From assembly GCA_022451865.1 (NCBI GenBank), contig JAKUNM010000001.1:4733-68732 (forward strand): 64,000 nt of DNA, in the 5' to 3' direction. The notes under the pieces were generated by a model. That model made no database searches. It had not been told where the DNA came from and saw only the letters and a program-made list of their open reading frames with translations. Below, in pieces: positions 12,666 to 62,109 of the stretch. How positions within the stretch are numbered: position 1 is the first letter of the stretch; each line of letters opens with the position of its first letter. Made by a program: the position numbers and the translations under genes. Source of the DNA: Dehalococcoidia bacterium. Its GTDB lineage: Bacteria > Chloroflexota > Dehalococcoidia > UBA2979.

Positions 12666-14510
12666 TCATATAAGTGTTCTCACGTCTCCATTGCGTTTTG
12701 TGATTTTTCTTTTGTCCAATTCTTCTAATATGGACTGTGCAATGCGTCGATTAGTATCAAGGTGATCTCTTGCTTCAGCTAAAGTAATACTAAAATTTGC
12801 TTTACAGTAAGTTGTAATTTGATTTGTAACTTCTGCAAATTGAGCCGCACTTAGAATTAATCCATTTCCACAATTAATTACTTGGCCTGTCGCGTTCAAA
12901 TATCCAAGTAATTCATCATCTATATTGAGTTTGATTACATGGAGTCCATTTATTTCCAACTCTTTTTTCAAGAGATCAAATTCTTTTGTATTCTTTTCAC
13001 TTAATTTTGGATTCCAGTTTTTGATTTTTAATCCTGTGCCGTGGAGCTTAATAGAAGGTGGAAGAGAATTAATAAAAGCTGAAAATTCAAATTGGCTCCA
13101 CCCTATATGATTCCGTACTTCCTCACGTGGCATTGTCACACGGAGGGGGAAATCTTTTTGATATTGCTCTAGCAAAGCTATAACTTTTCTTTGAATATTC
13201 ATTGAATTATCTGAAGTCATATAGAAAATTTTAGTATCTGATTCACATTTTATAATTCTTTTTTCAGACAGTAAGTTTCTTATAGCTTTTTCAGCTTCTG
13301 TATTGGAATTATCTGTGTTTAAAATTAGCTCACCATGTTCAATAATTTGCTGATTATCAATAATCTTAAAAATTTGGTTTTCAGGTGTATATGCTGCAAG
13401 AGAATCTAAATTATTTAGGATTACGTGATCATTTCGTCGATATCGTGGGGGATTGATATTAATGATTCTCCCTCCTCCGATTGTTTCATCAGAAATACGA
13501 ATTATTGAGATATCATTAGGCAGGCACGATATCTCATTTTTTAACAGGATTTGTGCCCATCCTGTGGAATTTGCTTCAATTGCTGATCCATTAAGTACTC
13601 GAACTGTCCCTTGAACTTCTGTTGCGCCAGTATGCACCGTAACTTTTAAGTTATGTGGTATATCTCTACGTGTTAGTGAGCGCAATTGAATATCGAATGC
13701 TTTTACTTTAGGTAATTGCCCTACGTGCCCAAGTACCAGACCTCTTGATAATTCATTGTTGTTTACGCCAGTTAGATTCACAGCTACACGTGTTCCTGGG
13801 TAGGCAATTTCAGCATTTTTTTGGTGAGATTGTAGGCCTCTGACTCTTCCAACAGCTCTTGAAGGTACTGCTTCCAACATATCCCCGATATGAATTGTTC
13901 CGCCCAAAAGTGTTCCAGTAACAACAGTTCCAAACCCATCAATTGTGAACACCCTATCAATGCCCAACCGTGGTCTATTAATATCGGCAGGTAAAGGAGC
14001 ATCTGTCAATTTTTCATCTATTGCACTAACTAACTCGCTCATGCCTTCCTTTGTTAAAGATGAAACTTTTAAGATTGGGCTGTTTTCAATACTGGTATTT
14101 TTTAATTCTTGAACGATCTCTTCTTCTATCAATTGAATCCATTCAGTATCAACTAGATCACATTTTGAAAGAACGATTATTGCATTATTTATCTCAAGCA
14201 AATCAAGAATTTCTAAATGTTCAATCGTTTGAGGCATTATTCCTTCGTCTGCTGCTATGACTAGCATTGCTAAATCAATACCACCTATTCCAGCCAACAT
14301 ATGTCGCATAAATTTGACATGACCTGGAACATCTACAATTGAAATTTCTTCGCCGGAAGGAAGAGTCATCCAAGCAAATCCTAGTTCAATAGTCAATCCT
14401 CGAATTTGTTCAGATTCCAATCGGTCAGGATTGATACCGGTCAGCGATTGAACTAGAGAAGATTTTCCATGGTCGACATGACCTGCTGTCCCAATTACGT
14501 ACATAATCAA
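12666..14510 (-). CDS. selB: Selenocysteine-specific elongation factor SelB
   Basis: GTPase G1 GTAGHVDHGKSSL, DVPGH motif, and a long C-terminal winged-helix extension (614 aa) typical of SelB rather than EF-Tu. Confidence 0.85.
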   Translation of the reverse strand: MIMYVIGTAGHVDHGKSSLVQSLTGINPDRLESEQIRGLTIELGFAWMTLPSGEEISIVDVPGHVKFMRHMLAGIGGIDLAMLVIAADEGIMPQTIEHLEILDLLEINNAIIVLSKCDLVDTEWIQLIEEEIVQELKNTSIENSPILKVSSLTKEGMSELVSAIDEKLTDAPLPADINRPRLGIDRVFTIDGFGTVVTGTLLGGTIHIGDMLEAVPSRAVGRVRGLQSHQKNAEIAYPGTRVAVNLTGVNNNELSRGLVLGHVGQLPKVKAFDIQLRSLTRRDIPHNLKVTVHTGATEVQGTVRVLNGSAIEANSTGWAQILLKNEISCLPNDISIIRISDETIGGGRIININPPRYRRNDHVILNNLDSLAAYTPENQIFKIIDNQQIIEHGELILNTDNSNTEAEKAIRNLLSEKRIIKCESDTKIFYMTSDNSMNIQRKVIALLEQYQKDFPLRVTMPREEVRNHIGWSQFEFSAFINSLPPSIKLHGTGLKIKNWNPKLSEKNTKEFDLLKKELEINGLHVIKLNIDDELLGYLNATGQVINCGNGLILSAAQFAEVTNQITTYCKANFSITLAEARDHLDTNRRIAQSILEELDKRKITKRNGDVRTLI

Positions 14511-15754
14511 TCTCCAAGTTTATTTAGCAAATCACTTTCATTGTCTGGGAGAAGATCTACGAATAGTTCGTTGGCTAATAATAGTCCTTTAGAAGAGAGT
14601 CTAAGAGATGTTTCAGTTTTTTCTAAAAGTCCAGTTTTGAGATGCTTTGATATTGCTTCTGCATAAAGTTGACTTATATCCACATTAAACCTTTTCTTAT
14701 AGTCATCAAAATTAATTCCTTCAATTAATCTCAAACCTAATATTGCTGTATCCGATTGTGTGGTAGCAAGGTCAGGAGTTTCATTACTTGTGATTTGTTT
14801 CATCACAATATGCTTTTTATTCTCCCATTCTGTATATGAAGTATTTACTAATTCTATATACCTATTTGGCGCATCAATATTTGCAAATCTTTTCCCATTA
14901 AAATATGAGTGAGCTCCTGCTCCAATGCCGAGATAATCTTTGTTACGCCAATATATTAAGTTGTGTATACATTGGTAATTTTTTTTAGCCCAATTTGATA
15001 TTTCATATTGGATATATTCTGCATCATCTAAACGTTTTCGAGTCCATTCATATTGTTCAGCAGCGATATCTGGATTGGGTTCAGGTAATACCCCTTTTTC
15101 TACACGATAATAAAGTGGTGTACCTGGTTCGATTGTTAATGCATAACAAGAAAGGTGTTCGGGATGATATTCTAATATTTCATCTACGGTTTCTTTCCAG
15201 GGGAGCAAATTCTGACTTATTAGTCCGTAAATTAAATCTAAATTTAGATTATCGAAACCAGCTTTTCGTGCAGCATTTATGACATTGATTACTTGTTCAG
15301 GGCTATGTGATCGCTCTAACAACTGAAGTTCTTTTGGATTCATGGATTGGACGCCCATTGAAAGGCGGTTAATGCCCAATTCACGTATTTTATGAAGATG
15401 TTCTTCTGTAAGTTCGGTAGGATTAGCTTCCAAGGTAAATTCAACATCAGAACTTACATTAAATGTTTCAAATATTGTTGCGATAATGTGATTTAAATCT
15501 GTAATTGAAGTTAAACTAGGGGTACCTCCTCCGAAAAATATGGACTTAACAGTGTGGTTACTAAGTCTTTTCTTCCACAATTTAATTTCTTTTATTAGTG
15601 AACTTGTATAATCAGGAACAAGGTAGTCAAGATTAGCGTAAGCATTAAAATCACAATAACCACATTTTGTTGTGCAAAAAGGAATATGTAAGTAAATACC
15701 TACAGGTAGAAGTTCGTTGGTACTATATTTTTGCTTGGATATTGTCTTTTCCAT
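14507..15754 (-). CDS. hemW: Radical SAM family heme chaperone HemW (HemN-like)
   Basis: Radical-SAM CxxxCxxC (HIPFCTTKCGYCDFNA) and a HemN C-terminal domain. Confidence 0.85.
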   Translation of the reverse strand: MEKTISKQKYSTNELLPVGIYLHIPFCTTKCGYCDFNAYANLDYLVPDYTSSLIKEIKLWKKRLSNHTVKSIFFGGGTPSLTSITDLNHIIATIFETFNVSSDVEFTLEANPTELTEEHLHKIRELGINRLSMGVQSMNPKELQLLERSHSPEQVINVINAARKAGFDNLNLDLIYGLISQNLLPWKETVDEILEYHPEHLSCYALTIEPGTPLYYRVEKGVLPEPNPDIAAEQYEWTRKRLDDAEYIQYEISNWAKKNYQCIHNLIYWRNKDYLGIGAGAHSYFNGKRFANIDAPNRYIELVNTSYTEWENKKHIVMKQITSNETPDLATTQSDTAILGLRLIEGINFDDYKKRFNVDISQLYAEAISKHLKTGLLEKTETSLRLSSKGLLLANELFVDLLPDNESDLLNKLGD

Positions 15755-27863: not shown

Positions 27864-28655
27864 ATGACACAAGCAACTTTAAGTAATTCCGAATCTCTTA
27901 ATCGTCGATATGGTCTTACTAAACGTTTAGATCGTTGGTGGTTCGAACCTTTACTTACAGGTGGCGGTCTATTAACTTTTGTGATTTATTCTTCTGTTTC
28001 TGCTTTACTTGGTCATTCGTGGGCATTTGAAACTGAACATGAGCTGTATCTTTCCCCGTTTTTTGAACCACTTATTACTCCGGAATTTTTGCCGATGTGG
28101 TTCTCACCAGCATTACTAATACTATGGGCTCCACTGGGTTTTCGAACTACTTGTTATTACTACCGTCGTACATACTATAGAGCCTATTTCCTAAGTCCTC
28201 CAGCTTGTGCAGTCCGTGAACCAGCTGGTTCTTATAGTGGTGAGGGAAAATTTCCACTCATTATTCAAAATTCACATCGCTATTTCATGTATGTTGCTGT
28301 TGTATTTGTGCCTATTCTTTGGCTAGGTGCTATAAAGTCGTTTTATTTACCTGGTGAAGGAATCGGGGTTGGTGTTGGTTCTATTATAATGACTTTGAAT
28401 GCTTTCTTCTTAATGATGTATACCGTCGGATGCCATTCTTTAAGACACTGGGTTGCTGGTGGCATTAATAGCTTTTCGAATACACCTCTACGACGTGTAC
28501 GTCGCAAAGTATGGGAAATTTTCACTGTGGCAAATGAACGTCATAAAGCTTGGGCTTGGACAAGTTTAATATGGGTAGGAGTCACCGATTTATATATCCA
28601 TTTGGTTGCTTCAGGGGTGATAACGGACCTAAATACTTTTACTGGTCCAATTTAA
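27864..28655 (+). CDS. sdhC: Succinate dehydrogenase/fumarate reductase cytochrome b subunit (single-subunit anchor, b558-like)
   Basis: Polytopic membrane protein with ~5 TM helices immediately upstream of sdhA-sdhB; conserved His residues in TM helices. No specific motif checked beyond this, hence moderate confidence. Confidence 0.6.
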   Translation: MTQATLSNSESLNRRYGLTKRLDRWWFEPLLTGGGLLTFVIYSSVSALLGHSWAFETEHELYLSPFFEPLITPEFLPMWFSPALLILWAPLGFRTTCYYYRRTYYRAYFLSPPACAVREPAGSYSGEGKFPLIIQNSHRYFMYVAVVFVPILWLGAIKSFYLPGEGIGVGVGSIIMTLNAFFLMMYTVGCHSLRHWVAGGINSFSNTPLRRVRRKVWEIFTVANERHKAWAWTSLIWVGVTDLYIHLVASGVITDLNTFTGPI

Positions 28656-43859: not shown

Positions 43860-45056
43860 ATGGGAATGAGTATGAACCAATCAGTAAAAGCTCTCGATGA
43901 TCTAGTTATTCTTGATCTCTCAACTTCTATTGCTGCCGCTTGGTGTACTAGGCTATTTGCTGATTTCGGAGCAAAAGTGGTAGTGATAGAACCTCCAGAA
44001 GGAAATTCTCTTAGACATTTAGTCTCCAACGATTCTGAAGGCTCTAATTTGCTTACAGATCATCTTTTATCGAATAAAAAATCTCTACAATTAGATATTG
44101 AAAGTACGGATGGGAGGGTTCTTTTTTTAGATTTGATTGATAAATGTGACGTCATTGTTGAAAGCTCTGTGCCAAGTCAATTAGAAAAATACGGGTTGGG
44201 ATTTAATGATCTGCATGATTCTTTCCCTGATTTGGTAGTACTTTCTGTAACTCCTTATGGTCAGGCAAACGAATATAGTTTTGCGCCTGCTAATAGTTTA
44301 GCGATTGCAGCACGTTCAGGGTGGGCATCCATTAATGGATTCGAAGAGAAAGGGCCTCTTTCTACAAGCAGTAATCAATCAGCATATTGTGCAGGTGTTC
44401 TTGCGTACGGCGCTACTCTCGCTGCAATATTTAGTGCGAGACAAGAGTCTGGGAGTGGTCAATATATTGATATTTCTGAATTCGAGGTTATGGTTTCGAA
44501 TTTTGCTCCACCTGCACTCTCCTCAGAATATAGTGGCAACATAACTAAACAAAAAAGCATGCATGAGACAAATCTTCTCGCAGGACCTGTTCCAGTTCAA
44601 GATGGTCATTTTGCTCTTACTCTAAGTAGGGCACATTTTTTTAGAGATGCGATGATGGTTTTAGGTTTGGAAGATTTAGCTGAAAATCTTGATTTACATG
44701 AAACGTGGTATCGAATGGCACATAAAGACTTATGGATGGGTAGAGTTCAAGATGCAATGAGTGAGTGGACACGCGAAGAATTATTTGACGAACTTGCCTT
44801 GCGGAGAGTAGTGGCAGGACCAGTGTTGAAGATGGATGAACTTGTAGAGAATGTTCATCTTCAAGAACGAGGCTTTTGGAATCTTTTGCGAGATGATCCA
44901 TTGCAGGTATTAAGACCTGGTGCACCATTTAAGTTATCTGAAACACCGTGGGTACTTGCTCATAAGGCACCTGATATTGGTCAACACAATGAAGAATTAA
45001 CGCATATGATTCTTCATTCTTCTAATGCCATTAAATCACACGATGGAGGAATCTAA
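43860..45056 (+). CDS. Family III CoA-transferase (CaiB/BaiF family)
   Basis: N-terminal Rossmann LDDLVILDLSTSIAAAWCTRLFADFGAKVVVIEPPEG and interlocking-dimer architecture; ~400 aa. Confidence 0.85.
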   Translation: MGMSMNQSVKALDDLVILDLSTSIAAAWCTRLFADFGAKVVVIEPPEGNSLRHLVSNDSEGSNLLTDHLLSNKKSLQLDIESTDGRVLFLDLIDKCDVIVESSVPSQLEKYGLGFNDLHDSFPDLVVLSVTPYGQANEYSFAPANSLAIAARSGWASINGFEEKGPLSTSSNQSAYCAGVLAYGATLAAIFSARQESGSGQYIDISEFEVMVSNFAPPALSSEYSGNITKQKSMHETNLLAGPVPVQDGHFALTLSRAHFFRDAMMVLGLEDLAENLDLHETWYRMAHKDLWMGRVQDAMSEWTREELFDELALRRVVAGPVLKMDELVENVHLQERGFWNLLRDDPLQVLRPGAPFKLSETPWVLAHKAPDIGQHNEELTHMILHSSNAIKSHDGGI

Positions 45057-46318
45057 TGTCAGGACCTCTAAAAGGAATTCGTGGAATTGTTCTAACTCAA
45101 GCATGGGCTGGCAGTTACTGTACAGAACTTTTTGCGATGGCTGGAGCTGACATCGTACAACTAGAGGTTCGTAAACGTCCCGATTCTTGGAGAGGAACGT
45201 ACACAGCTCCGATGTCAGAATCTATGAATAAAATATCCACTGCAAGGCATGTCTGGAATATCAATTCAAATTTTAATGCTGTTAATCTTGGGAAAAGATC
45301 CTTTACATTAGATTTATCGCGTGATGAAGGCGTGGATATTTTTAAATCTTTAATTAAGCACGCAGATTTTGTTGCTGAAAATTTCTCTCCTCGTGTAATG
45401 GGTAACTTAGGTTTTTCATATGAAGAATTATGTGAGATTAAACCTGATATTATTTTGGCTAGTCTTTCTGCATATGGCCATGATGGACCATGGTGTAATG
45501 TTCCAGGGATTGGAGGAACAGTAGAACCTACTTCCGGTATGTCTGCTTTATTAGGTTATGGAGATGGTGTGCCTATTAATTCAGGTGTTATGTATCCAGA
45601 TGCAGTTGCAGGTCTTTATGGATTTTCTGGCCTTTTGACTGCATTACACTATCGTAATCGTACTGGTAAGGGTCAGTTTGTTGATTTATCTATGCAGGAA
45701 GCTAATTTGGCTAATATTGGTGAAGCTGCATTAGAGTACACCTATACAAAGCAAGTCCCTAATGCGATAGGAAATCGTCATAAAATTTATGCTCCACACG
45801 GAATATTTCCTTGTGCCGATGGTGTTGAAGGGAATAAAAAGTGGATTGCTATTGCTGCTGAAAATGATACGCAATGGCTGGCACTGTGTGAAATCTCAGG
45901 TATGTCATGGGCGAGCAATTCGAAATTTAGCAATAATGTTTTACGTAAGGAAAACGAGGATGAACTTAATCAAGAAATTTCTTTATGGACTCGAGGACAA
46001 GATCGAGATTTACTTTCGGACTTTTTAAGTTCAAAAGGTGTGATAGCAGCCCCTGTCTTAAATGCAAAAGAATTATTAAACGATCACGTTCTACGTTCAC
46101 GTGGTGTTATTGTCGAGTTAGATCATCCAGAAGTAGGAAAAAAAGCTCAAATTGGAGCCCCCTTTCATTTTTCCCAAGACAAAATATCAGTAGAACGTCC
46201 ATCTCCTTTACAAGGAGAGCACTCGTTCGAAGTTTTTTCAGAGCTTTTAGGAATGGATCGTGATGAATATGAAAAGTTAGTCGCAGAAAATATTTCAGGG
46301 GAAGGACCACCGAAATGA
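45056..46318 (+). CDS. Family III CoA-transferase (CaiB/BaiF family), second paralog
   Basis: LKGIRGIVLTQAWAGSYCTELFAMAGADIVQLE N-terminus. Start overlaps the upstream stop (TAATG). Confidence 0.85.
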   Translation: MSGPLKGIRGIVLTQAWAGSYCTELFAMAGADIVQLEVRKRPDSWRGTYTAPMSESMNKISTARHVWNINSNFNAVNLGKRSFTLDLSRDEGVDIFKSLIKHADFVAENFSPRVMGNLGFSYEELCEIKPDIILASLSAYGHDGPWCNVPGIGGTVEPTSGMSALLGYGDGVPINSGVMYPDAVAGLYGFSGLLTALHYRNRTGKGQFVDLSMQEANLANIGEAALEYTYTKQVPNAIGNRHKIYAPHGIFPCADGVEGNKKWIAIAAENDTQWLALCEISGMSWASNSKFSNNVLRKENEDELNQEISLWTRGQDRDLLSDFLSSKGVIAAPVLNAKELLNDHVLRSRGVIVELDHPEVGKKAQIGAPFHFSQDKISVERPSPLQGEHSFEVFSELLGMDRDEYEKLVAENISGEGPPK

Positions 46319-47157
46319 AAGATTTTGAACAAATTCGATATGTCGAGGAAGATCACGTTGCTCGTATAATTCTTGATCGCCCAAATTATCGCAATGCTCA
46401 GAGTAGAAAACTTCTTGAAGAAATGGATGAAGCTTTTGACTTAGCTGTTGATAATAGAAAAATTCGAATGATAGTTCTTTCTGGTGAAGGGCATTCTTTT
46501 TCAGCAGGTCATGATTTAGGTACTCCTGAAAACATTGCAGATCAAGAAAACCGTCCCTATGAAGAAGGGATGAGAGGTATATATAAAAGATCTACAGCTC
46601 AGAATGTCACTAATACATTGCGTTGGAGGAATATTCCCAAACCAACTATGGCTATAGTACATGGGTACTGCATATTTGGTGGCTGGATGATTGCATCTGC
46701 GATGGATCTAATTTTTGCTGCTGATGATGCTATGTTCTTAGGGACTAACTTTCAATATTTTTCACCTCCGTGGGATATCCATCCCCGAAAAGTAAAGGAA
46801 ATTTTCTTTGAAAGTCGATTTATTGATGGTAAAGAAGCTCATGAACTTGGCCTAGTTAATAGGGTTTACCCTCAGGAAATCTTAGAAAAAGAGGCTATGT
46901 CTTATGCACATCGTGTTGCGGAAAACGATGAATTTCAACTTCGTCTTATTAAACTAGCAGTAAATCGTGCTCAGGATAATCAAGGATTCACAGAACATAT
47001 TAATGATGCTCACTTACTTCATTTATTAAGTAGTCAAGCTGAGAAAGATCCTGATTTTGCATTGCAGAAGCCAGACATGCGTCGAAGACCAATGGTTCAA
47101 CGTGCGGTTGAAAACTATGAGTTACATAAAAAAAATAATTTGCAAAAAGAAGAGTAA
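46315..47157 (+). CDS. Enoyl-CoA hydratase/isomerase (crotonase superfamily)
   Basis: VARIILDRPNYRNAQS..L..E..EA........IRMIVLSGEGHSFSAGHDL oxyanion-hole region. 4-nt overlap with the upstream gene. Confidence 0.85.
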   Translation: MKDFEQIRYVEEDHVARIILDRPNYRNAQSRKLLEEMDEAFDLAVDNRKIRMIVLSGEGHSFSAGHDLGTPENIADQENRPYEEGMRGIYKRSTAQNVTNTLRWRNIPKPTMAIVHGYCIFGGWMIASAMDLIFAADDAMFLGTNFQYFSPPWDIHPRKVKEIFFESRFIDGKEAHELGLVNRVYPQEILEKEAMSYAHRVAENDEFQLRLIKLAVNRAQDNQGFTEHINDAHLLHLLSSQAEKDPDFALQKPDMRRRPMVQRAVENYELHKKNNLQKEE

Positions 47158-47161
47158 TTAT

Positions 47162-49594
47162 CTATTTGATAGTTTTTATTATGCCTGCTGAAGACCATTT
47201 TTCGATATCTTTTTTGGTTGAACCAACTAGTTGATTTAGTATTTCTTCAGTATGCTCTCCGAAGCGTGGCGCAGGTTGAATGTTCTGAACAGGTCTTCTT
47301 TTGTATCGCCATACAGGTCTTGTAGTTATCTGTTCTCCAGTCTCAATATGTTTATATGTCATGAAAGCTAAGCGGTCTTTTAAATGTTTGTCATATTTTA
47401 GCTGCAATGGTGACAGGACTGGTGAAGCAGCGATCCCTAGTGATTGTAATTGCTCTGCAAGTTCTTCAGCATGTTTTTCCCTAATCCAAGGTTTAATTAT
47501 TTTTTCAATTTTTTCTTTATTACTTACTCGAGCAGCTTTTGATGTAAATTCTGGTGTTAGAAGATTTTTGTCTTCAATCAAAGAACAAAACGAAATCCAT
47601 TTTGTGTCATCATTAATTTCAAAGGCTATATAAGTATCTACAATTTCATTTAAGATAGAGCCGTCTGAGTCCGTTTGATAGCGCGGGATGCTATCTTGTG
47701 TTTGATAGACTCCTGATGGCACATCTTGATAGTTATTATTTCCTTCACGATGTGGCAGGGGGTTACCGATTGATTCTGCAACAATATATTCACCTATTAA
47801 TCCAATAATGCCATCTCTTTGCGGTATAACGATGTGGCAACCTTGGTCTAGAGATTCTTTCCGATGAAGTGCAATTGCGATAGCGGCTGCTGCAGTTGTT
47901 CCAGCTATGGGGTCACCATAAGAGATTCCACTTTTATGAGGTTCTTTGGAATCGTAGCCTTGCAACCAAACCAAACCTCCCATTTGTTCGATGCCTGGTC
48001 CGTATCCTACACGATTTGCATCAGATCCTTCATGTCCAAAGCCAGGCATCGATACATATATTATAGAAGGATTTATTGCTTTAACTTTTTCATAATCTAA
48101 TCCAAGTCTGACTGCTACTCCTGAGCTCCAATTTTCTACAAATATATCAGCTGATGAAAGAAGTTTTAGAATAGCCTCTTTACCTATTGTTGATTTTAAG
48201 TCAATAACTAGACTTCGTTTATTGCGATTATATTCATTAAAGTATGCACTTTGATTAATTTCATTATCACTTAAACTTCCTCCCACTCCACGTACAGAGT
48301 CAGGAAAGTCAGGTCCTTCTATTTTTATTACGTCTGCGCCCATATCTCCAAGATAACGACAAGCATATGGACCAGCCCAAATTTGAGTAACATCGATTAC
48401 TCTCATACCTTCTAGAGGCATATCCGGAGAATGAATGTCATCTTTCTTGTCAATTTCTATAGAATTAACTGTTGAAGAAAATATATTACGAATACTTTCG
48501 GAATCTTCATTGACTAAAGGTGCACGCTTTTGGAATCCTCTATTCCCATCAAAAATAATTGGACCTGCAGGTAGAAGATGTTTGCCCAGTGTAGGATGTT
48601 CCACTTCATGCCAGAAATTAATTTCTTTTAGATTGTTTGAGTTAATTAACTCGTTGGGTGACATGATTTTTGTGAAAGGTGTTCGATGTTTTTGGGCAGT
48701 TTCAAAAATTTCATTTGAGCTGCGGATGCTTGTCCATTCTCTTATAATTTCGAATAGCACATCATTTGTATTAGGCTCCCAAGCATTTTCAAAGAATGGA
48801 TCTTCTTTGAATTCTGATTTACCTATACAGTCATAAATCGAAAAGCCTTGTCGAGGCATACCTGCTAGACCTATGAAGCCATCTTTAGTTGGATGTATTC
48901 CCCAGGTAGCTCGCGGTGAATTGCCTGTTCTTGTAGCATCACTGTCTCTAACTAATGCTGCTGGCCCTGCACCTTCTAATGTGGCATTTTGAACTTCTTG
49001 GAGCGAGAGATCAATGTAATCACCAAGTCCACTTCTTTTTGCTGCGACTAATGCCATTGAGATAGCAGCAAAGGCATGTAAACCACCTTGGTAATAAGCC
49101 TGATGTCCTACAGGTTTAAGCGGTTCCTGATCAGGTTCTCCGCACAAACTCATTTCTCCACCAGAAGCGGCGGCAGTCAGAGATGTTGCACTCCAGAGTG
49201 CATGTCTACCATATTGTCCATATGGAGTGATTGAACAAGTGACTATCTGTTTTTTTTTATTTATCAATTCTGAGGGATCGATTCCGTATGATGATAATTG
49301 CCCCGGGGCATATGATTCAATTAGTACATCAGAATCGAGAATTATCTGTTCTAATAATTCTCGATCGACCTTTAATTCTAGATTAATAGAAATTGATTTT
49401 TTACCACTATGCAAGTAAGCACCAAGTATGTTTGTATTTGGATCATATGAATTTGCATCGGATATATTTCGAATATTGTCTCCAAAAGATGTTTCGACAA
49501 GTATTACTTCTGCACCATATGTTGCAAATAATTTTCCGGCGAATGCACCTGAAATATCATTTGCGAGTTCTACAACTTTAATTCTATCGAGCAT
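47162..49594 (-). CDS. Fused tandem family III CoA-transferase (two CaiB/BaiF domains in one 810-aa polypeptide)
   Basis: Domain 1 N-terminus MLDRIKVVELANDISGAFAGKLFATYGAEVILVE. A second complete domain starts near residue ~390: LEGMRVIDVTQIWAGPYACRYLGDMGADVIKIEGP. Confidence 0.8.
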   Translation of the reverse strand: MLDRIKVVELANDISGAFAGKLFATYGAEVILVETSFGDNIRNISDANSYDPNTNILGAYLHSGKKSISINLELKVDRELLEQIILDSDVLIESYAPGQLSSYGIDPSELINKKKQIVTCSITPYGQYGRHALWSATSLTAAASGGEMSLCGEPDQEPLKPVGHQAYYQGGLHAFAAISMALVAAKRSGLGDYIDLSLQEVQNATLEGAGPAALVRDSDATRTGNSPRATWGIHPTKDGFIGLAGMPRQGFSIYDCIGKSEFKEDPFFENAWEPNTNDVLFEIIREWTSIRSSNEIFETAQKHRTPFTKIMSPNELINSNNLKEINFWHEVEHPTLGKHLLPAGPIIFDGNRGFQKRAPLVNEDSESIRNIFSSTVNSIEIDKKDDIHSPDMPLEGMRVIDVTQIWAGPYACRYLGDMGADVIKIEGPDFPDSVRGVGGSLSDNEINQSAYFNEYNRNKRSLVIDLKSTIGKEAILKLLSSADIFVENWSSGVAVRLGLDYEKVKAINPSIIYVSMPGFGHEGSDANRVGYGPGIEQMGGLVWLQGYDSKEPHKSGISYGDPIAGTTAAAAIAIALHRKESLDQGCHIVIPQRDGIIGLIGEYIVAESIGNPLPHREGNNNYQDVPSGVYQTQDSIPRYQTDSDGSILNEIVDTYIAFEINDDTKWISFCSLIEDKNLLTPEFTSKAARVSNKEKIEKIIKPWIREKHAEELAEQLQSLGIAASPVLSPLQLKYDKHLKDRLAFMTYKHIETGEQITTRPVWRYKRRPVQNIQPAPRFGEHTEEILNQLVGSTKKDIEKWSSAGIIKTIK

Positions 49595-49628
49595 CTGAAT
49601 ATTTTATGGCTACCTGTTTTAGGACTAT

Positions 49629-50060
49629 CTAGATAAGTTTTGATGCATTATCGATAAATACTTGTAGGCTGGGGTTGTAACGGAAAAATAAGTCAGCCTT
49701 AAAACCATCTTCCATTAAGTTTTTATGGATTTCCTCTTCCAATCTCAAATCAAGAGTATTAAGTGTCCATTCACCTGTTGCATGTCCATTCTCAGAAATA
49801 TTTTCTAGCATTTCATCCCAAATATTAGTAGGCATTTCTACTACAACATCGACATCACGAAGTTCATCATCATTAATTTGATGAATATTGTTGATATCTA
49901 GGACATCAAAATTACAACTAATATTAGTCTTACCATATTTGAAGGCAATCAAGGCATTCAAGCGTCCATAACGTCGATAATTTTCATCTTCTACAGTTAT
50001 GTCTGCTAATTTCTGAAACCATTCAACGGAAGGAAACCTTTCTAAATTACTTGCCATCAT
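49629..50060 (-). CDS. Hypothetical protein, possibly SCP2-like lipid/acyl-binding domain
   Basis: 143 aa. Spacing of conserved W/hydrophobic positions (FPSVEWFQKLADI...YRRYGRLNALIAFKYG...) weakly resembles SCP2 sterol-carrier-like domains. Co-operonic with the CoA-transferase. Confidence 0.3.
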   Translation of the reverse strand: MMASNLERFPSVEWFQKLADITVEDENYRRYGRLNALIAFKYGKTNISCNFDVLDINNIHQINDDELRDVDVVVEMPTNIWDEMLENISENGHATGEWTLNTLDLRLEEEIHKNLMEDGFKADLFFRYNPSLQVFIDNASKLI

Positions 50061-50073
50061 GTCCTCCTAAAAG

Positions 50074-50376
50074 TTAAAAATCTATCGGTTTTCCAGGATC
50101 TTCAGCAACATCAAACGGAGTCATTTTTGCGAGATGTCTCATTGGTTCCGCTTCCGGTGTTTGTGCCATTCTGTCTTCTACCATGCGTTTGTACATAGGA
50201 TCTAAAGATCTTAATGCATCTATTTCATTTCTTGAAAGAGAAAAAGAGGTAGGGATCTTTCGGATTTTGGGACTTGAACATGCAATACATTCCTCTGGTT
50301 CTGGTGATTGTGACCCGCGAACCAATTTTTCAAATTGTTCATTACAAATTTCACAGCGATAAGCAAATAACGGCAT
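50074..50376 (-). CDS. FmdB-family zinc-ribbon protein
   Basis: MPLFAYRCEICNEQFE...ECIACSS: CxxC...CxxC zinc ribbon at the N-terminus, as in the FmdB family; 100 aa. Confidence 0.65.
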   Translation of the reverse strand: MPLFAYRCEICNEQFEKLVRGSQSPEPEECIACSSPKIRKIPTSFSLSRNEIDALRSLDPMYKRMVEDRMAQTPEAEPMRHLAKMTPFDVAEDPGKPIDF

Positions 50377-50379
50377 ATA

Positions 50380-51450
50380 TTATTCTGAAGCTCCAACATC
50401 TTCTGCAATTAATTCCTGCATTGGGTTTGGTATTTTATTAGTCCTATCGATGCCTGCCGTTTTTAAGTATTGCAGATAATCATGGATCCAATCTTTTTTT
50501 AATTTTTCTACGATTGACATTCCTGAATCAATATTGCGAACTCCTCTACCAAATATGACTGCTAAAGCTTCCCAAAGAACATGATCTCTTGTTTCATCAA
50601 GTTGTACTAGTTCCACTCGTGTTAGCCATTCTCCCAGAGTTTCTCGAAGTGCTGGCACTTGGCTGATAGCAAATCGGATATGATCTACTGCATATGCTAT
50701 AGAGCGTGTTCGATCTGATAGTATCCTCCATGCAAGTATTCTGTCAGCCTCTGTCGGTCCATAGACTGATAGATATCGTAGGATGTTTTTTTGGAAAGAT
50801 CCTCGCATGATATACTGAGCTAGTACTGTCTCTGACCAACCTGCGTAAGATTCATAGATGAGCCGGTTTAGCTTCCCTGGACTTTCAAAAAGCATCCCTC
50901 CGCCATTCACCATTGCTCGTTTTCTGTAGCCATCAAACATACGCGCTGAATCGAAAATGGCGGTAGAAAGATAGATCTTAACTTCATGGTAACCTGGGCT
51001 TAAATTTTGTAACCATCCAGAAATTACCTCAGATTCTACAGATGCTTGTTGACATAATTCTGTAGCGACTTGGCATATAGCTAGTTCTATATCTTCCGGG
51101 ATTTCATTTATTGATTCCCAAGGTATTTCAGTGGCAGTTGACCAACGTCTACTAATTGTTTCTTCATAAAGTAAACCGGCTACATCTGCCCATTGTTCAT
51201 ATTTATCTTGAAGATAGTAACCTCCAATATTCCCTACATCTACAGGCCATGCACCCCGTGGTCGACGGTTTCTATAATGAATGCGGTCTGGGATGTCTGC
51301 ATATACGCCAATATTAATTGCATCAATAGTTAGTCCACCTCCATTCAATTCAGGTCGCGCACGTGTTCCCCAACCCAGAGTTTTATCCATCCAACTGAGA
51401 TCATTCGTTTGAGTTTCTTCTGTAGGTATTGCATCAGGTTGTTGAACCAT
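50380..51450 (-). CDS. Conserved hypothetical protein (mostly helical, function unknown), first gene of the minus-strand CoA-transferase operon
   Basis: 356-aa ORF with tight spacing to downstream genes (3-13 nt). No canonical motif recognised. Scattered E/H/DH residues but no clear paired ExxH. Confidence 0.4.
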   Translation of the reverse strand: MVQQPDAIPTEETQTNDLSWMDKTLGWGTRARPELNGGGLTIDAINIGVYADIPDRIHYRNRRPRGAWPVDVGNIGGYYLQDKYEQWADVAGLLYEETISRRWSTATEIPWESINEIPEDIELAICQVATELCQQASVESEVISGWLQNLSPGYHEVKIYLSTAIFDSARMFDGYRKRAMVNGGGMLFESPGKLNRLIYESYAGWSETVLAQYIMRGSFQKNILRYLSVYGPTEADRILAWRILSDRTRSIAYAVDHIRFAISQVPALRETLGEWLTRVELVQLDETRDHVLWEALAVIFGRGVRNIDSGMSIVEKLKKDWIHDYLQYLKTAGIDRTNKIPNPMQELIAEDVGASE

Positions 51451-51551: not shown

Positions 51552-51639
51552 TGGTGCCGGGAGAGGGACTCGAACCCTCACGAGATTATATCTCGGCAGA
51601 TTTTAAGTCTGCTGCGTCTGCCTATTCCGCCATCCCGGC
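51552..51639 (-). tRNA. tRNA-Leu (anticodon TAA)
   Basis: Minus-strand sequence GCCGGGA-TG-GCG-GAATAGGCAGA-CGC-A-GCAGA-CTTAAAA-TCTGC-[long variable arm CGAGATATAATCTCGTG]-GAGGG-TTCGAGT-CCCTC-TCCCGGC-ACCA. 7-bp acceptor, anticodon loop CT-TAA-AA, long variable arm typical of tRNA-Leu, CCA encoded; 88 nt. Confidence 0.85.
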
Positions 51640-59160: not shown

Positions 59161-61368
59161 CTACCTAGGACTTAAGGGTGCAAATGACAGCATTAACTTC
59201 TTAATTCCTTGCCCTTCAAATGCAACTATTATTTGCTGATCATCCTGAAGTACTGTGCATTCTATGACTGTGCCATTTCCGAATTTTTTGTGAACAACTT
59301 GGTCTCCAGGTTGATAGCTTGCTATTTGTAATTTGAGATTTTCTTGTTTTTCTGTTTGTCGAGTTTGAGCAGCTCCTCTTAATCCACGTTCTTTTATTTC
59401 AGTAGTAAAGGTAGTTTCTCTAAAAGGGTATTGAAGGTTTTCTTCAGATATATCATTTAAGAACCTTGAAGGAGGATTATTTCTGAATGTCCCATAAAGA
59501 AAACGACTCGCCGATCTCGTAAGATAAAGGATATGTTCTGCACGAGTCATTCCTACATAAAAGACACGTCGCTCCTCTTCTAATTGTTTTGGATCATCAA
59601 AAGAACGAATTGAAGGAAGTAATCCTTCCTCCAATCCAGGCATAAAAACAACAGGAAACTCTAATCCTTTTGCCGAATGGAGACTAGTTAATGTGACAGT
59701 TGGGGTTTCATCATTAGGACCATCGACATCTGAAACGAGTGCAATTTCCTCTAAAAATTGCGATAAAGTCGAATCTGGTGATACATCCTGATAGAGAGTA
59801 GCAACTGATCTAAGTTCTTCGATATTTTCCCAACGTCCTTCAGCATGTTCTGTATCAGTTTCTGTTAGATGTTCCCGGTAGTTGATGGTGGATAATAATT
59901 TATCTAAAAGTTCTATGATTGTGTTTTGTTTTGAATATTCTTCGAGCATTTCGATTTGGTGGACTAACTGTTGTAGGTTTTCCTTTCTTCTACTAGTAAA
60001 AGTTGGGAAACGGGAGTCATTATTAGTAATACCAGCACAGACATCAATTGGTGATATTCCTAGCTCTAGTGAAGAATTTAAGATTTGCTCCAGTGATTTT
60101 TTACCAATATTTCTTTTTGGAATATTTACTATCCTTTGAAATGCAAAGCTATCGAATGGATTATAGATGACTCTTAAGTATGCAATGACATCTCGAATTT
60201 CCAGTCGATCATAAAATCGAGTTCCACCAACAATCCTGTAAGGTATAGATTTTCGAATAAGTGCATCTTCAATTGCACGTGATTGTGCATTGATACGGTA
60301 CATAACTGCAAAATCCGAATAATTGTATCTTGTATTTTGGGTTAAGCGACGTATTTCATCAGCAATAAATTGTCCTTCTGTATCACTGTCTGTAGCAGTA
60401 TAGCTGTATACTTTTTCTCCTTGTGGATTATTAGTCCATGTAGATTTATTCGGTCGATTCGGTAGCTGGTTAATTACTGAATCAGCAGCTTTAAGTATAT
60501 GCTCAGTACTGCGATAATTTTGTTCAAGTAAGATTGTTTGTACTGTTGGGAAGTCTCTTCGTAAGTATTCAATATTTCGAATATCCGCAGCACGCCATGA
60601 GTAGATTGATTGATCTGGATCACCTACGACAGTTATATTTTTGTGAGTAGATGCTATCAATTGTGCGATTTGATACTGAATAACGTTAGTGTCTTGGAAT
60701 TCATCGATTAACGTATGGATATAACGGCTTGTGTACTTTTCAAGTATTAGTGCACTATTCTCAAAAAGTTCTAGAGTTTTTCCTAATAAATCATCAAAAT
60801 CTACTGCGCCACTTTGAGATAAACCTTTTGTGTATTCTTTGAATACTCTTCCAACTACTTCTTCGAAATAATTTTCAACATTTTTTTGGTATGTGGAATC
60901 AGTAAATCTTTTGTTTTTAGCACTGGAAATTGTCGATAGTATTTGTCGAGGTGGAAATTTTTTCGAATCTATGTTTAAGTTTGATTGAATCTGGCGAATT
61001 AAAGCTAATTGATCTGCTGTATCATATATAACAAAATTGGTTGGCAGATCTATTTTACTTCCATCTACCCTTAATATCCGCGCACATATCGAATGGAACG
61101 TTCCCATTGATAATGATATTGCTTTATCACCGAGTAACTGATGTATACGTTCTCGCATTTCCCGTGCAGCTTTATTTGTGAAAGTTACTGCTAAAATTCG
61201 ATGGGGATCGATATTTAATGATTCTATAAGGTATGCAATCCTATGAGTGATAACTCTAGTTTTTCCTGAACCTGGACCTGCTAAGATAATAAGAGGCCCA
61301 GACGGAGTTTCGACAGCAAGTTGTTGATTATCATTAAGTTCAGTGTTCATATTTTTCATATCTATCAA
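59161..61368 (-). CDS. uvrD: ATP-dependent DNA helicase, UvrD/PcrA family
   Basis: Walker A AGPGSGKTRVITHR, helicase motifs II-VI, and a Tudor-like PcrA/UvrD C-terminal end; 735 aa. Confidence 0.9.
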   Translation of the reverse strand: MIDMKNMNTELNDNQQLAVETPSGPLIILAGPGSGKTRVITHRIAYLIESLNIDPHRILAVTFTNKAAREMRERIHQLLGDKAISLSMGTFHSICARILRVDGSKIDLPTNFVIYDTADQLALIRQIQSNLNIDSKKFPPRQILSTISSAKNKRFTDSTYQKNVENYFEEVVGRVFKEYTKGLSQSGAVDFDDLLGKTLELFENSALILEKYTSRYIHTLIDEFQDTNVIQYQIAQLIASTHKNITVVGDPDQSIYSWRAADIRNIEYLRRDFPTVQTILLEQNYRSTEHILKAADSVINQLPNRPNKSTWTNNPQGEKVYSYTATDSDTEGQFIADEIRRLTQNTRYNYSDFAVMYRINAQSRAIEDALIRKSIPYRIVGGTRFYDRLEIRDVIAYLRVIYNPFDSFAFQRIVNIPKRNIGKKSLEQILNSSLELGISPIDVCAGITNNDSRFPTFTSRRKENLQQLVHQIEMLEEYSKQNTIIELLDKLLSTINYREHLTETDTEHAEGRWENIEELRSVATLYQDVSPDSTLSQFLEEIALVSDVDGPNDETPTVTLTSLHSAKGLEFPVVFMPGLEEGLLPSIRSFDDPKQLEEERRVFYVGMTRAEHILYLTRSASRFLYGTFRNNPPSRFLNDISEENLQYPFRETTFTTEIKERGLRGAAQTRQTEKQENLKLQIASYQPGDQVVHKKFGNGTVIECTVLQDDQQIIVAFEGQGIKKLMLSFAPLSPR

Positions 61369-61398
61369 TTCTACGATTTATTATTTTTCTGGGGTAAC

Positions 61399-62109
61399 AT
61401 GGAACGAGTGATCTTCGCAATCCTATATCCTCATGGAGGTGAATACTTGGAAATATTGCTAAGCTGGCCTGGGGGCGATTGGCAAACCACACTGAGACTA
61501 GTTGGTGCAGTGGTTGCTGGCTATTTTCTTCTGTTGTGGGCGACATATATTTTATGGGTTGCTAGGGATATCCGCTTGCGTACTCATGACCCTGTATCAC
61601 AAATTATTGCGATTTTGATAGCGATAATTTTACCTTTTGTTACATTCCCTATTTATATAACTCTTAGACCACGAGAAACTTTACAAGATTCTTATCTGAA
61701 ATTACTTGAACGTGAAGTCCTTTTTTCTCAATTGGAAGAAATACAAAATAATTCTCAAGTTTTTCAATCTAATGACTTGAATTCATTGGGAAGTACATTA
61801 TTAGCTGAGATGGATGCACATGAATTAATCGAATCATCTGAACCTACTCTTTTCTTTGATGACGTTGATGAGATCGAGTTCGATGAGTTTGATTCTCAAG
61901 TGAGATATTCACTAACATCTTCAGAGGATGAAGTCATAAATGAGGACATCGAGGAGTTCTCTCTAGAGGATGAAGTCATAAATGAGGACATCGAGGATAT
62001 TTTTTTCAGGATCTTTGTTATCAATCTCGAAATTTACTTCTTCAATTTCATCAAAAGAAAGTTTTTGGGGAGATCTCTCGATGTCCTCATTTATGACTTC
62101 ATCCTCTAG
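61399..62109 (+). CDS. Small membrane protein (PLDc_N-like two-TM domain) with an acidic C-terminal tail encoded partly by 42-bp tandem repeats
   Basis: Start at internal Met MERVIF.... Two TM helices with ...IILPFVTFPIYITLRPRE (resembles cardiolipin-synthase N-terminal-type domains). Then D/E-rich low-complexity sequence including SEDEVINEDIEEFSLEDEVINEDIE encoded by the forward repeat arm. The 3' end and stop fall inside the inverted repeat array, so the true C-terminus is uncertain. Confidence 0.5.
   Translation: MERVIFAILYPHGGEYLEILLSWPGGDWQTTLRLVGAVVAGYFLLLWATYILWVARDIRLRTHDPVSQIIAILIAIILPFVTFPIYITLRPRETLQDSYLKLLEREVLFSQLEEIQNNSQVFQSNDLNSLGSTLLAEMDAHELIESSEPTLFFDDVDEIEFDEFDSQVRYSLTSSEDEVINEDIEEFSLEDEVINEDIEDIFFRIFVINLEIYFFNFIKRKFLGRSLDVLIYDFIL

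Follow-up and report, generated by a model that had tools for sequence, protein, structure and literature searches.

Paired family-III CoA-transferases and a ferritin-like module without its alpha gene between gatB and mutS of a Dehalococcoidia bacterium

We have analysed a stretch of 64,000 nt (the window) from a Dehalococcoidia bacterium (assembly GCA_022451865.1, contig JAKUNM010000001.1), in which seven genes between gatB and mutS encode family-III coenzyme A (CoA)-transferases and several partner proteins. We believe that these genes form two conserved cassettes that are separable from each other and that reside in the native, streamlined chromosome of a SAR202-type organism. One cassette consists of two adjacent transferase genes, called P1 and P2 here, and a crotonase gene; the other consists of genes for a ferritin-like protein (beta), a zinc ribbon, a small protein with a predicted SCP2 fold and a fused double transferase. 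Together with the mechanism proposed below, this reading has in our estimate a probability of about 0.55. The seven genes and the adjoining tRNA gene are listed here.

43860..45056, plus strand: P1, family-III CoA-transferase without the catalytic Asp, 398 aa (PF02515, 1.6e-76)
45056..46318, plus strand: P2, family-III CoA-transferase with Asp182, 420 aa (PF02515, 6.1e-92)
46315..47157, plus strand: atypical crotonase-fold protein, PRK08290-like, 280 aa (ECH_1, 1.9e-30)
47162..49594, minus strand: fused double family-III CoA-transferase, 810 aa (PF02515 twice, 6.3e-157)
49629..50060, minus strand: small protein with a predicted SCP2 fold, 143 aa (AlphaFold2 (AF2) model and Foldseek)
50074..50376, minus strand: FmdB-type zinc ribbon with four Cys and a 60-aa tail, 100 aa (PF09723, TIGR02605)
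50380..51450, minus strand: beta, predicted ferritin/R2-like helical bundle without metal ligands, 356 aa (AF2, Foldseek and paralogy)
51552..51639, minus strand: tRNA-Leu(UAA), between the beta gene and mutS (ARAGORN; Rfam, 58.9 bits)

The coordinates and lengths of the seven open reading frames (ORFs) agree exactly with those in a preliminary description of this DNA, and Pfam and NCBIfam also find the domains that it named, i.e., CoA_transf_3 in P1, in P2 and twice in the 810-aa protein, the crotonase and the FmdB ribbon. The start/stop overlaps that it reported for the plus-strand genes are real (TAATG, 1 nt at 45056, with GGAGG upstream, and ATGA, 4 nt at 46315), and they appear to indicate translational coupling of P1, P2 and the crotonase gene. 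Within the minus-strand operon, 3, 13 and 34 bp separate the successive genes for beta, ribbon, SCP2-fold protein and fused transferase. The 143-aa and 356-aa proteins have no match in Pfam or NCBIfam, and none of the seven proteins reaches an NCBIfam equivalog cut-off; therefore, no specific enzyme name can be given to any of them. The public records (MCH2657430-35, from a Dehalococcoidia metagenome-assembled genome (MAG)) label the genes just 'CoA transferase', 'enoyl-CoA hydratase-related' or 'hypothetical'. In what follows, L-numbers (L001-L091) refer to related loci from other genomes and contigs, and P-numbers with four digits (e.g., P0001) to homologous proteins.

All four transferase domains belong to family III, with PF02515 scores of 258 bits for P1, 309 bits for P2 and 523 bits for the 810-aa protein against a cut-off of 23.3. 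In the CoA-TRANSFERASES comparison, the nucleophile column was anchored on Asp182 of P2, whose counterparts in the alignment are Asp residues of YfdE, SUGCT, a formyl-CoA transferase (10uh) and 9fn0 chain B. This column holds the catalytic Asp of the family (Asp169 in Frc). An alignment of the four domains, which the preliminary description had proposed as a way of locating this residue, finds it in P2 (Asp182) and in the C domain of the fused protein (Asp561) and not in P1 (Ala175) or in the fused N domain (Tyr167). We then have the pattern in the relatives from a survey of 131 family-III domains from 91 related loci. Asp is present in 43 of the 44 P2-like domains, and the fused-C-like domains have Asp in 31 cases and Glu in five. 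None of the 19 P1-like domains has Asp (17 have Ser and two have Ala), and in the 32 fused-N-like domains Tyr occurs 22 times and Asp once. By the Asp criterion, these results support the view that just one half of each pair can be catalytic.

Benzylsuccinate CoA-transferase BbsEF (PDB 9fn0) resembles these pairs in having two distinct family-III subunits that are encoded side by side. Its chain A has Tyr at the nucleophile column, like the fused N domain, preceded by an NQ motif that is common to P1, and its chain B has Asp, like the fused C domain. Chain A is the best or second-best solved relative of both P1 (2.2e-30, with a common NQ..Y/A motif) and the fused N domain. The best PDB match of P2 is chain B (1.8e-54), and the fused C domain matches chain B, Frc and SUGCT. 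However, the similarity to BbsEF is just 1e-30 to 1e-54, no Bbs pathway partners are encoded here and one of the two copies is a single-chain fusion.

In five species (L028 and L030-L033) the P1 and P2 orthologues are joined, with P1 first, into single proteins of 814-818 aa that are encoded beside the crotonase orthologue. These fusions were assigned by scores that are much higher to P1/P2 than to the fused N and C domains. The orthologues of the fused gene itself encode proteins of 805-834 aa. In two loci, L027 (12111-14569) and L017 (11523-16959), the orthologue consists of two overlapping ORFs, one N-like and one C-like, which may be a genuine split of the gene or the result of frameshift errors in the long-read assemblies.

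Taken together, the complementary Asp pattern, the matches to the BbsEF chains and the P1-P2 fusions support each pair as one two-part enzyme of the BbsEF type, as the preliminary description had suggested for both the adjacent and the fused pair. P1 would be a non-catalytic, BbsE-like partner subunit and P2 the catalytic, BbsF-like subunit, and the 810-aa protein would be a single-chain pseudo-heterodimer of the same design. We predict that P1 and P2 form the interlocked dimer of family III as a heterodimer with one functional active site. The earlier remark that P1 has GFEEKGP in place of the usual GEPD is correct (alignment to 4ed9) but trivial.

Other heteromeric family-III enzymes are SmtAB, which acts on malate in Chloroflexus, and SptAB for phthalate, as cited in PMC11659651. 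The transferase architecture described here is a new member or variant of these known heteromeric and fused family-III enzymes. Double-transferase cassettes are also found on plasmids outside the Chloroflexota, and therefore the paired design appears to be widespread. For example, a 'CoA transferase x2' cassette occurs with an enoyl-CoA-hydratase-related gene in Variovorax sp. SRS16 (NZ_LR594668.1, 268966-272817), and another such cassette occurs in Rhodococcus (NZ_CP147922.1, 36809-39231).

The protein encoded after P2 matches the crotonase family PF00378 with 106.5 bits (cut-off 27) and NF006140 (PRK08290) with 239 bits, which is under the cut-off of 280 bits. Its nearest PDB relatives are the uncharacterised mycobacterial enoyl-CoA hydratases 3t3w and 3ome (about 1e-41), followed by MenB. 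In an alignment to human ECHS1, Met and Asn appear to stand at the columns of Glu144 and Glu164 of canonical hydratases, and by the same alignment 23 of 23 orthologues are without both catalytic Glu. Because the two canonical Glu are missing and the PRK08290 cut-off is missed, 'enoyl-CoA hydratase' is a fold label here and not an established activity. The orthologues conserve the motif NFQYF(S/T)xPWD and an acidic pair in FAA(D/E)DAMF, and this gene is the most conserved one of the cluster, with 96% identity and a ratio of nonsynonymous to synonymous substitution rates (dN/dS) of 0.03 compared to L013.

We suggest that the acyl-CoA product of P1 and P2 passes to this atypical crotonase, and that the trio is a closed cycle in which CoA is moved from the product thioester onto a fresh free acid. 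The net outcome would be a crotonase-type conversion of a free carboxylic acid without ATP cost. Such a cycle would be the most economical arrangement because no dehydrogenase or thiolase is encoded nearby, and it would explain the lack of a dehydrogenase, a thiolase and a ligase. The model for an ATP-free cycle on a free acid is AcuN/AcuK of Halomonas (PMC13104084), which like the trio combines a CoA-transferase with a crotonase-fold enzyme and has no dehydrogenase or thiolase. However, AcuN is a single gene, and the crotonase here is without the canonical Glu.

The minus-strand operon holds part of a conserved module that the preliminary description missed when it listed an unknown 356-aa protein as a member of an island. 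This protein (beta), the ribbon and the SCP2-like protein belong, together with a fourth protein that we call alpha, to a ferritin-like four-gene module. Beta has 242 homologues, all of them from Chloroflexota/Dehalococcoidia and all named 'hypothetical'. When one genome per species was scanned, 494 stretches that encode the family turned up, all within the Chloroflexota, and a profile search of 1.84 billion cluster representatives returned 694 relatives only. The AF2 model of beta (predicted local distance difference test score (pLDDT) of 82) is a helical bundle, and its Foldseek matches are ribonucleotide reductase (RNR) R2, R2lox, ADO, PaaC and MMOH (probability 1.0, template-modelling score (TM) about 0.5). 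From this model, beta is predicted to be a ferritin/R2-like helical bundle.

Alpha, a paralogue of 365-420 aa with 29% identity to beta (E 1e-41), is labelled 'ferritin-like domain-containing' by NCBI. The neighbourhood analysis covered 80 species-level loci, of which 74 have enough upstream DNA; in 72 of these the gene immediately upstream of beta encodes alpha (66 by automatic count and six more on inspection). It is more conserved than beta and invariably has E ... DE(A/S)RH ... E ... DESRH, i.e., the full dimetal-carboxylate ligand set. At the DE(A/S)RH, GEG and DESRH positions the beta protein of the window has DSARM, RGS and DRTRS. Three Glu are missing from beta in every clade, and both His are missing too in the clade of the window.

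The ribbon and the small SCP2-like protein are present in 64 of 66 loci, and the module has the order alpha-beta-ribbon-small. The distant clade L059-L091 has alpha-beta-SCP2-(0-3 ORFs without a Pfam match)-SCP2-ribbon instead (e.g., L062, 8532-15569, and L079, 8773-13849). The module of this clade sits among further conserved ORFs that are wholly unannotated, and a Pfam search with the neighbours in L062 and L079 gave almost no matches.

The ribbon matches PF09723 (Zn_ribbon_8/FmdB) with 44.3 bits (cut-off 34.4; 1.8e-11) as well as TIGR02605, and its residues C8, C11, C30 and C33 are invariant in 71 orthologues. The 143-aa protein has 102 homologues, all in the Chloroflexota and all hypothetical. 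Its AF2 model has a pLDDT of 91.7, and the top Foldseek match is 1wfr (TT1886, a putative sterol carrier protein; TM 0.64, E 1.6e-3), followed by AF1534 SCP2, human SCP2 and UbiJ-SCP2 (TM 0.4-0.5). The protein is thus predicted to have the fold of these proteins, as had been guessed earlier, but it has no Pfam SCP2 match. We predict from the model that it binds or carries a hydrophobic ligand. UbiJ binds lipids as an accessory subunit of a hydroxylase metabolon.

Alpha has weak matches to R2lox models (NF006200; E 6e-9 to 1e-6, far under the cut-off). The more distant relatives of the ferritin-like family have weak, mostly sub-threshold matches to DUF455, AurF and RNR-small, and P0345 alone passes the AurF cut-off; the distant relatives P0285, P0295 and P0366 have an N-terminal TusA-like domain. 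Neither beta nor alpha has any Pfam match at E up to 10, be it to PF05138 (PaaA_PaaC) or to another family. Both PaaA/PaaC and yeast Rnr2/Rnr4 consist of a ferritin-like catalytic subunit and a paralogue without metal ligands. The Paa system is like alpha/beta in this respect, its substrate is a CoA thioester and small accessory proteins take part in it. The window differs from Paa and RNR in that there is no PaaA_PaaC match, the catalytic subunit is missing at this locus and no reductase is encoded nearby; a reductase gene was also not found beside the module in the loci with Pfam-annotated genes (L001-L011). R2lox is the nearest named sequence family of alpha and a recurrent Foldseek match of beta, and its fatty-acid ligand (PMC9314684) is compatible with an SCP2-fold partner. 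However, R2lox forms homodimers and has no partners of the beta, ribbon or SCP2 kind, and alpha falls well short of the family cut-offs. Our literature searches found no description of a ferritin-like/ribbon/SCP2 module, and it would be an undescribed variant of the multicomponent ferritin-like oxidases.

The examples of PaaA/PaaC and Rnr2/Rnr4 suggest that beta would be the structural partner of alpha. The ribbon with its four Cys would be an accessory or electron-transfer subunit, and the SCP2-fold protein would deliver a hydrophobic ligand. In the relatives, the transferase would supply, or act on, a CoA ester that is handled by an O2-dependent alpha/beta oxidase.

Alpha is absent in just two species loci, L012 and L013, which are from the same lineage as the window and the metagenome contigs L008-L011. 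Beta is 90-92% identical within this lineage. The gene order in L001 and L016 is mutS, tRNA-Leu(UAA), alpha and beta; in the window, L012 and L013 it is mutS, tRNA-Leu and beta, with about 100 bp from the tRNA to the beta start. Because tRNA-Leu-alpha-beta in the former corresponds to tRNA-Leu-beta in the latter, the comparison shows a clean deletion of alpha next to tRNA-Leu in the lineage of the window. Since alpha is deleted, the oxidative step would be either absent in this lineage or supplied from elsewhere in the genome. The tRNA gene had been overlooked in the preliminary description, and public 399-aa calls of beta (P0001 and relatives) run into it. This longer start was rejected as over-extended because it overlaps the tRNA-Leu gene, and 356 aa is the sound start.

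Within the alpha-less lineage, at a synonymous divergence (dS) of 0.5-0.9, beta has a dN/dS of 0.06-0.07, the ribbon one of 0.03-0.08 and the SCP2-like protein one of 0.07-0.08. The range for all seven genes is 0.03-0.13 (P1 has 0.11 compared to L013), and beta has no excess divergence from the sister lineages. Judged from their substitution patterns, which are as constrained as those of the enzymes, these three proteins are clearly still in use.

These results could also mean that alpha is encoded elsewhere in the genome, so that a complete alpha/beta oxidase is made and just the gene order has changed. We consider this possible, if somewhat unlikely. The strength of purifying selection on the three partners and the lack of any acceleration in beta after the linkage was lost both agree with it. 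However, tblastn with four alpha queries found no alpha elsewhere in the 64-kb window, and there is none in the 21-kb loci L012 and L013. Likewise, none of the 120 best alpha homologues, which extend down to 65% identity, has the AT-driven amino-acid bias of this well-sampled lineage and could be a relocated alpha. As noted above, alpha is adjacent to beta in nearly all of the species loci.

The two cassettes display different patterns in the relatives. In about 25 loci, in which the beta proteins are 55-70% identical, the gene after that for the SCP2 protein is the fused transferase gene, in the same orientation. The fused gene is missing in L004, L006 and the whole L059-L091 clade, which is the most distant one and has no linked transferase. 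About 15 loci have the P1-P2-crotonase trio in convergent orientation to the operon. In L001/L002 (14481-18678), from relatives with proteins that are 68-71% identical, the cobalamin-salvage genes cobO-cobU-cobT-cobS and a cyclase gene lie between the fused transferase and gatB and replace the trio; because of this replacement, the gatB-mutS interval appears to be a variable slot. The gene neighbourhood, whose conservation the preliminary description had named as a point to check, thus consists of separable units, the trio and the minus-strand operon; the trio is missing in some relatives and the fused gene in others. Of the 48 fully flanked loci, 13 have a CoA-transferase gene immediately behind the module and seven have one ahead of it, in the same orientation, and in the L040-L054 clade alpha is immediately preceded by three transferase genes with its own orientation. 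As far as gene order can tell, the link between the ferritin-like module and transferases is frequent and not obligatory.

In the clade of L004 (84-8647 and 11939-14914), the module is flanked by three CoA-transferase genes, a luciferase-like monooxygenase gene, a MaoC-like gene and two genes of the enolase superfamily (MR_MLE). These families are the paralogue mix noted for SAR202.

Several points weigh against the reading that we prefer. No CoA-transferase is encoded within 10 kb of the module in 25 of the 48 fully flanked loci, and part of the linkage could be due to chance because SAR202 genomes abound in CaiB paralogues, with 62 members of a single Sfam in five partial genomes (PMC5395668). 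We saw no gene for a reductase or ferredoxin partner beside the module, and with alpha missing an oxidase mechanism cannot be asserted for the genome of the window. We infer the formation of the P1/P2 heterodimer, and the same applies to any contact between ferritin-like and transferase proteins. The hydration step is uncertain, since the crotonase appears to lack the canonical Glu pair.

The first two of these points, and the cob genes that replace the plus-strand trio, also agree with the explanation that the transferase genes and the ferritin-like module are mere neighbours with no functional connection. The whole L059-L091 clade is among the loci without a transferase. We regard this explanation as unlikely, although it deserves to be kept in mind. 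The fused gene keeps its position and strand, tens of bp from the SCP2 gene, across the lineages with such divergent beta proteins, and the L040-L054 clade independently has its arrangement of three transferase genes upstream of alpha.

Our preferred reading of two cassettes can be carried further, to a proposal that is tentative and, at present, doubtful. Alpha/beta, the ribbon and the SCP2 protein might be an undescribed heteromeric, R2lox-like metallo-oxidase of Dehalococcoidia/SAR202, which acts on hydrophobic carboxylic acids that are activated by CoA-transferases with a single active site. In streamlined surface-ocean lineages, beta, the ribbon and the SCP2 protein might then have taken on an alpha-independent role, e.g., as a delivery or scaffold subunit of the fused transferase.

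The fused protein also invites comparison with DddD, which has a tandem CaiB layout. In this explanation the 810-aa protein would be a DddD-type CoA-transferase/lyase for dimethylsulfoniopropionate (DMSP), and P1, P2 and the crotonase would be a module of the AcuN/AcuK type that converts acrylate to 3-hydroxypropionate, a combination that would be fitting for an organism of the surface ocean. DddD is a class III enzyme of at least 800 aa (PMC4437653, PMC9327192), and the 810-aa protein with its two PF02515 domains has this size and domain composition. As a characterised fused double family-III transferase of about 810-840 aa with one essential Asp, DddD is like the protein described here. In addition, DddD is the top Swiss-Prot match for some of the CaiB proteins of SAR202 (PMC5395668), AcuN and the hydratase AcuK are clustered with dddD in Halomonas (PMC13104084), and the lineage of the window has low GC and was recovered in Tara surface-ocean data (PMC11994032).

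However, there is no dddT, dddB/dddA, dddC or acuI in the window, none of the linked ddd genes is among the annotated genes of L001-L011 and the conserved partners of the fused gene are those of the ferritin-like module. The phylum differs from that of DddD, and orthologues of the fused gene occur in MAGs with subsurface/groundwater (L020, L021) and inland (L017, L035) isolate names, where, as far as record titles can tell, DMSP would be unlikely. The best match in the sequences of 72,556 plasmids has about 30% identity (31% at most) and a generic annotation (tblastn with the whole protein, the domain junction and the N domain). The published criterion for a DddD is at least 40% identity to a ratified sequence (PMC9327192). 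The missing Glu pair of the crotonase also argues against this explanation, and a role in DMSP degradation is improbable.

The preliminary description favoured a beta-oxidation-like route in the style of BbsEF, with the ribbon comparable to the DUF35 partner of a thiolase. The BbsEF chains are indeed the best solved relatives of the transferases, and a crotonase gene is co-encoded. However, as the same description stated, the window has no gene for a regulator, an acyl-CoA dehydrogenase or a thiolase (all ORFs of at least 150 aa). A 3-hydroxyacyl-CoA dehydrogenase is absent as well, and dehydrogenases and thiolases are not consistently present in the related loci. The ribbon is of the FmdB type and always travels with the ferritin-like genes, and the crotonase has Met and Asn in place of the Glu pair; such a route is, therefore, very improbable. 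The idea that beta, the ribbon and the SCP2 protein are decaying remnants, which the loss of the sole metal-binding subunit might suggest, is hardly credible and was rejected on the dN/dS values given above. In addition, many independent assemblies have intact copies of the ORFs, which form clusters of 58, 6 and 24 members at 90% identity.

The oxidation of recalcitrant marine organic matter is attributed to SAR202 and related Dehalococcoidia, whose abundant CaiB-type paralogues have no assigned substrates. The locus offers a structural rule for these paralogues, i.e., a half without Asp and a half with Asp, either split or fused, which sorts many of them into obligate pairs. It also ties one transferase pair to a conserved and wholly unannotated ferritin-like module that is found in hundreds of species. 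The clean loss of the metal-binding subunit while its partners are still under selection is a natural experiment on the role of these partners. The locus belongs to an uncharted part of carbon metabolism. Current understanding is not overturned by these results and no new principle emerges from them, but they supply well-defined targets for biochemistry.

The locus had also been called an accessory island, and here the evidence points the other way. GC is flat at 0.37-0.40 (0.35-0.42 across the window), no integrase or transposase gene is present at the locus, and the synteny with gatB on one flank and tRNA-Leu/mutS on the other is kept in relatives whose proteins are 68-71% identical; the order tRNA-Leu/module/mutS is ancestral. 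Horizontal acquisition was rejected because of this native composition and conserved synteny. The low GC of the window fits the genome-streamlined SAR202 described in PMC11994032, and relatives of the locus genes with 90% identity were found in Tara and other marine data.

The flanks of the locus consist of housekeeping genes, with gatB, secG, fmt, rlmN and L25 on one side and tRNA-Leu, mutS, mutL, tRNA-Phe, a thiamine pyrophosphate enzyme gene and uvrD on the other. Genes of the tricarboxylic acid cycle and for Sec, Clp and Opp-type transporter proteins are located farther out in the window. Two ORFs of 262-263 aa (27864-28655 and 61321-62109, both on the plus strand) have no Pfam match at E up to 1e-5. 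Finally, a gene for the selenocysteine elongation factor SelB adjoins a HemN-like radical S-adenosylmethionine gene (12666-15754, minus strand), and the presence of SelB implies that selenoproteins are used in this streamlined genome.

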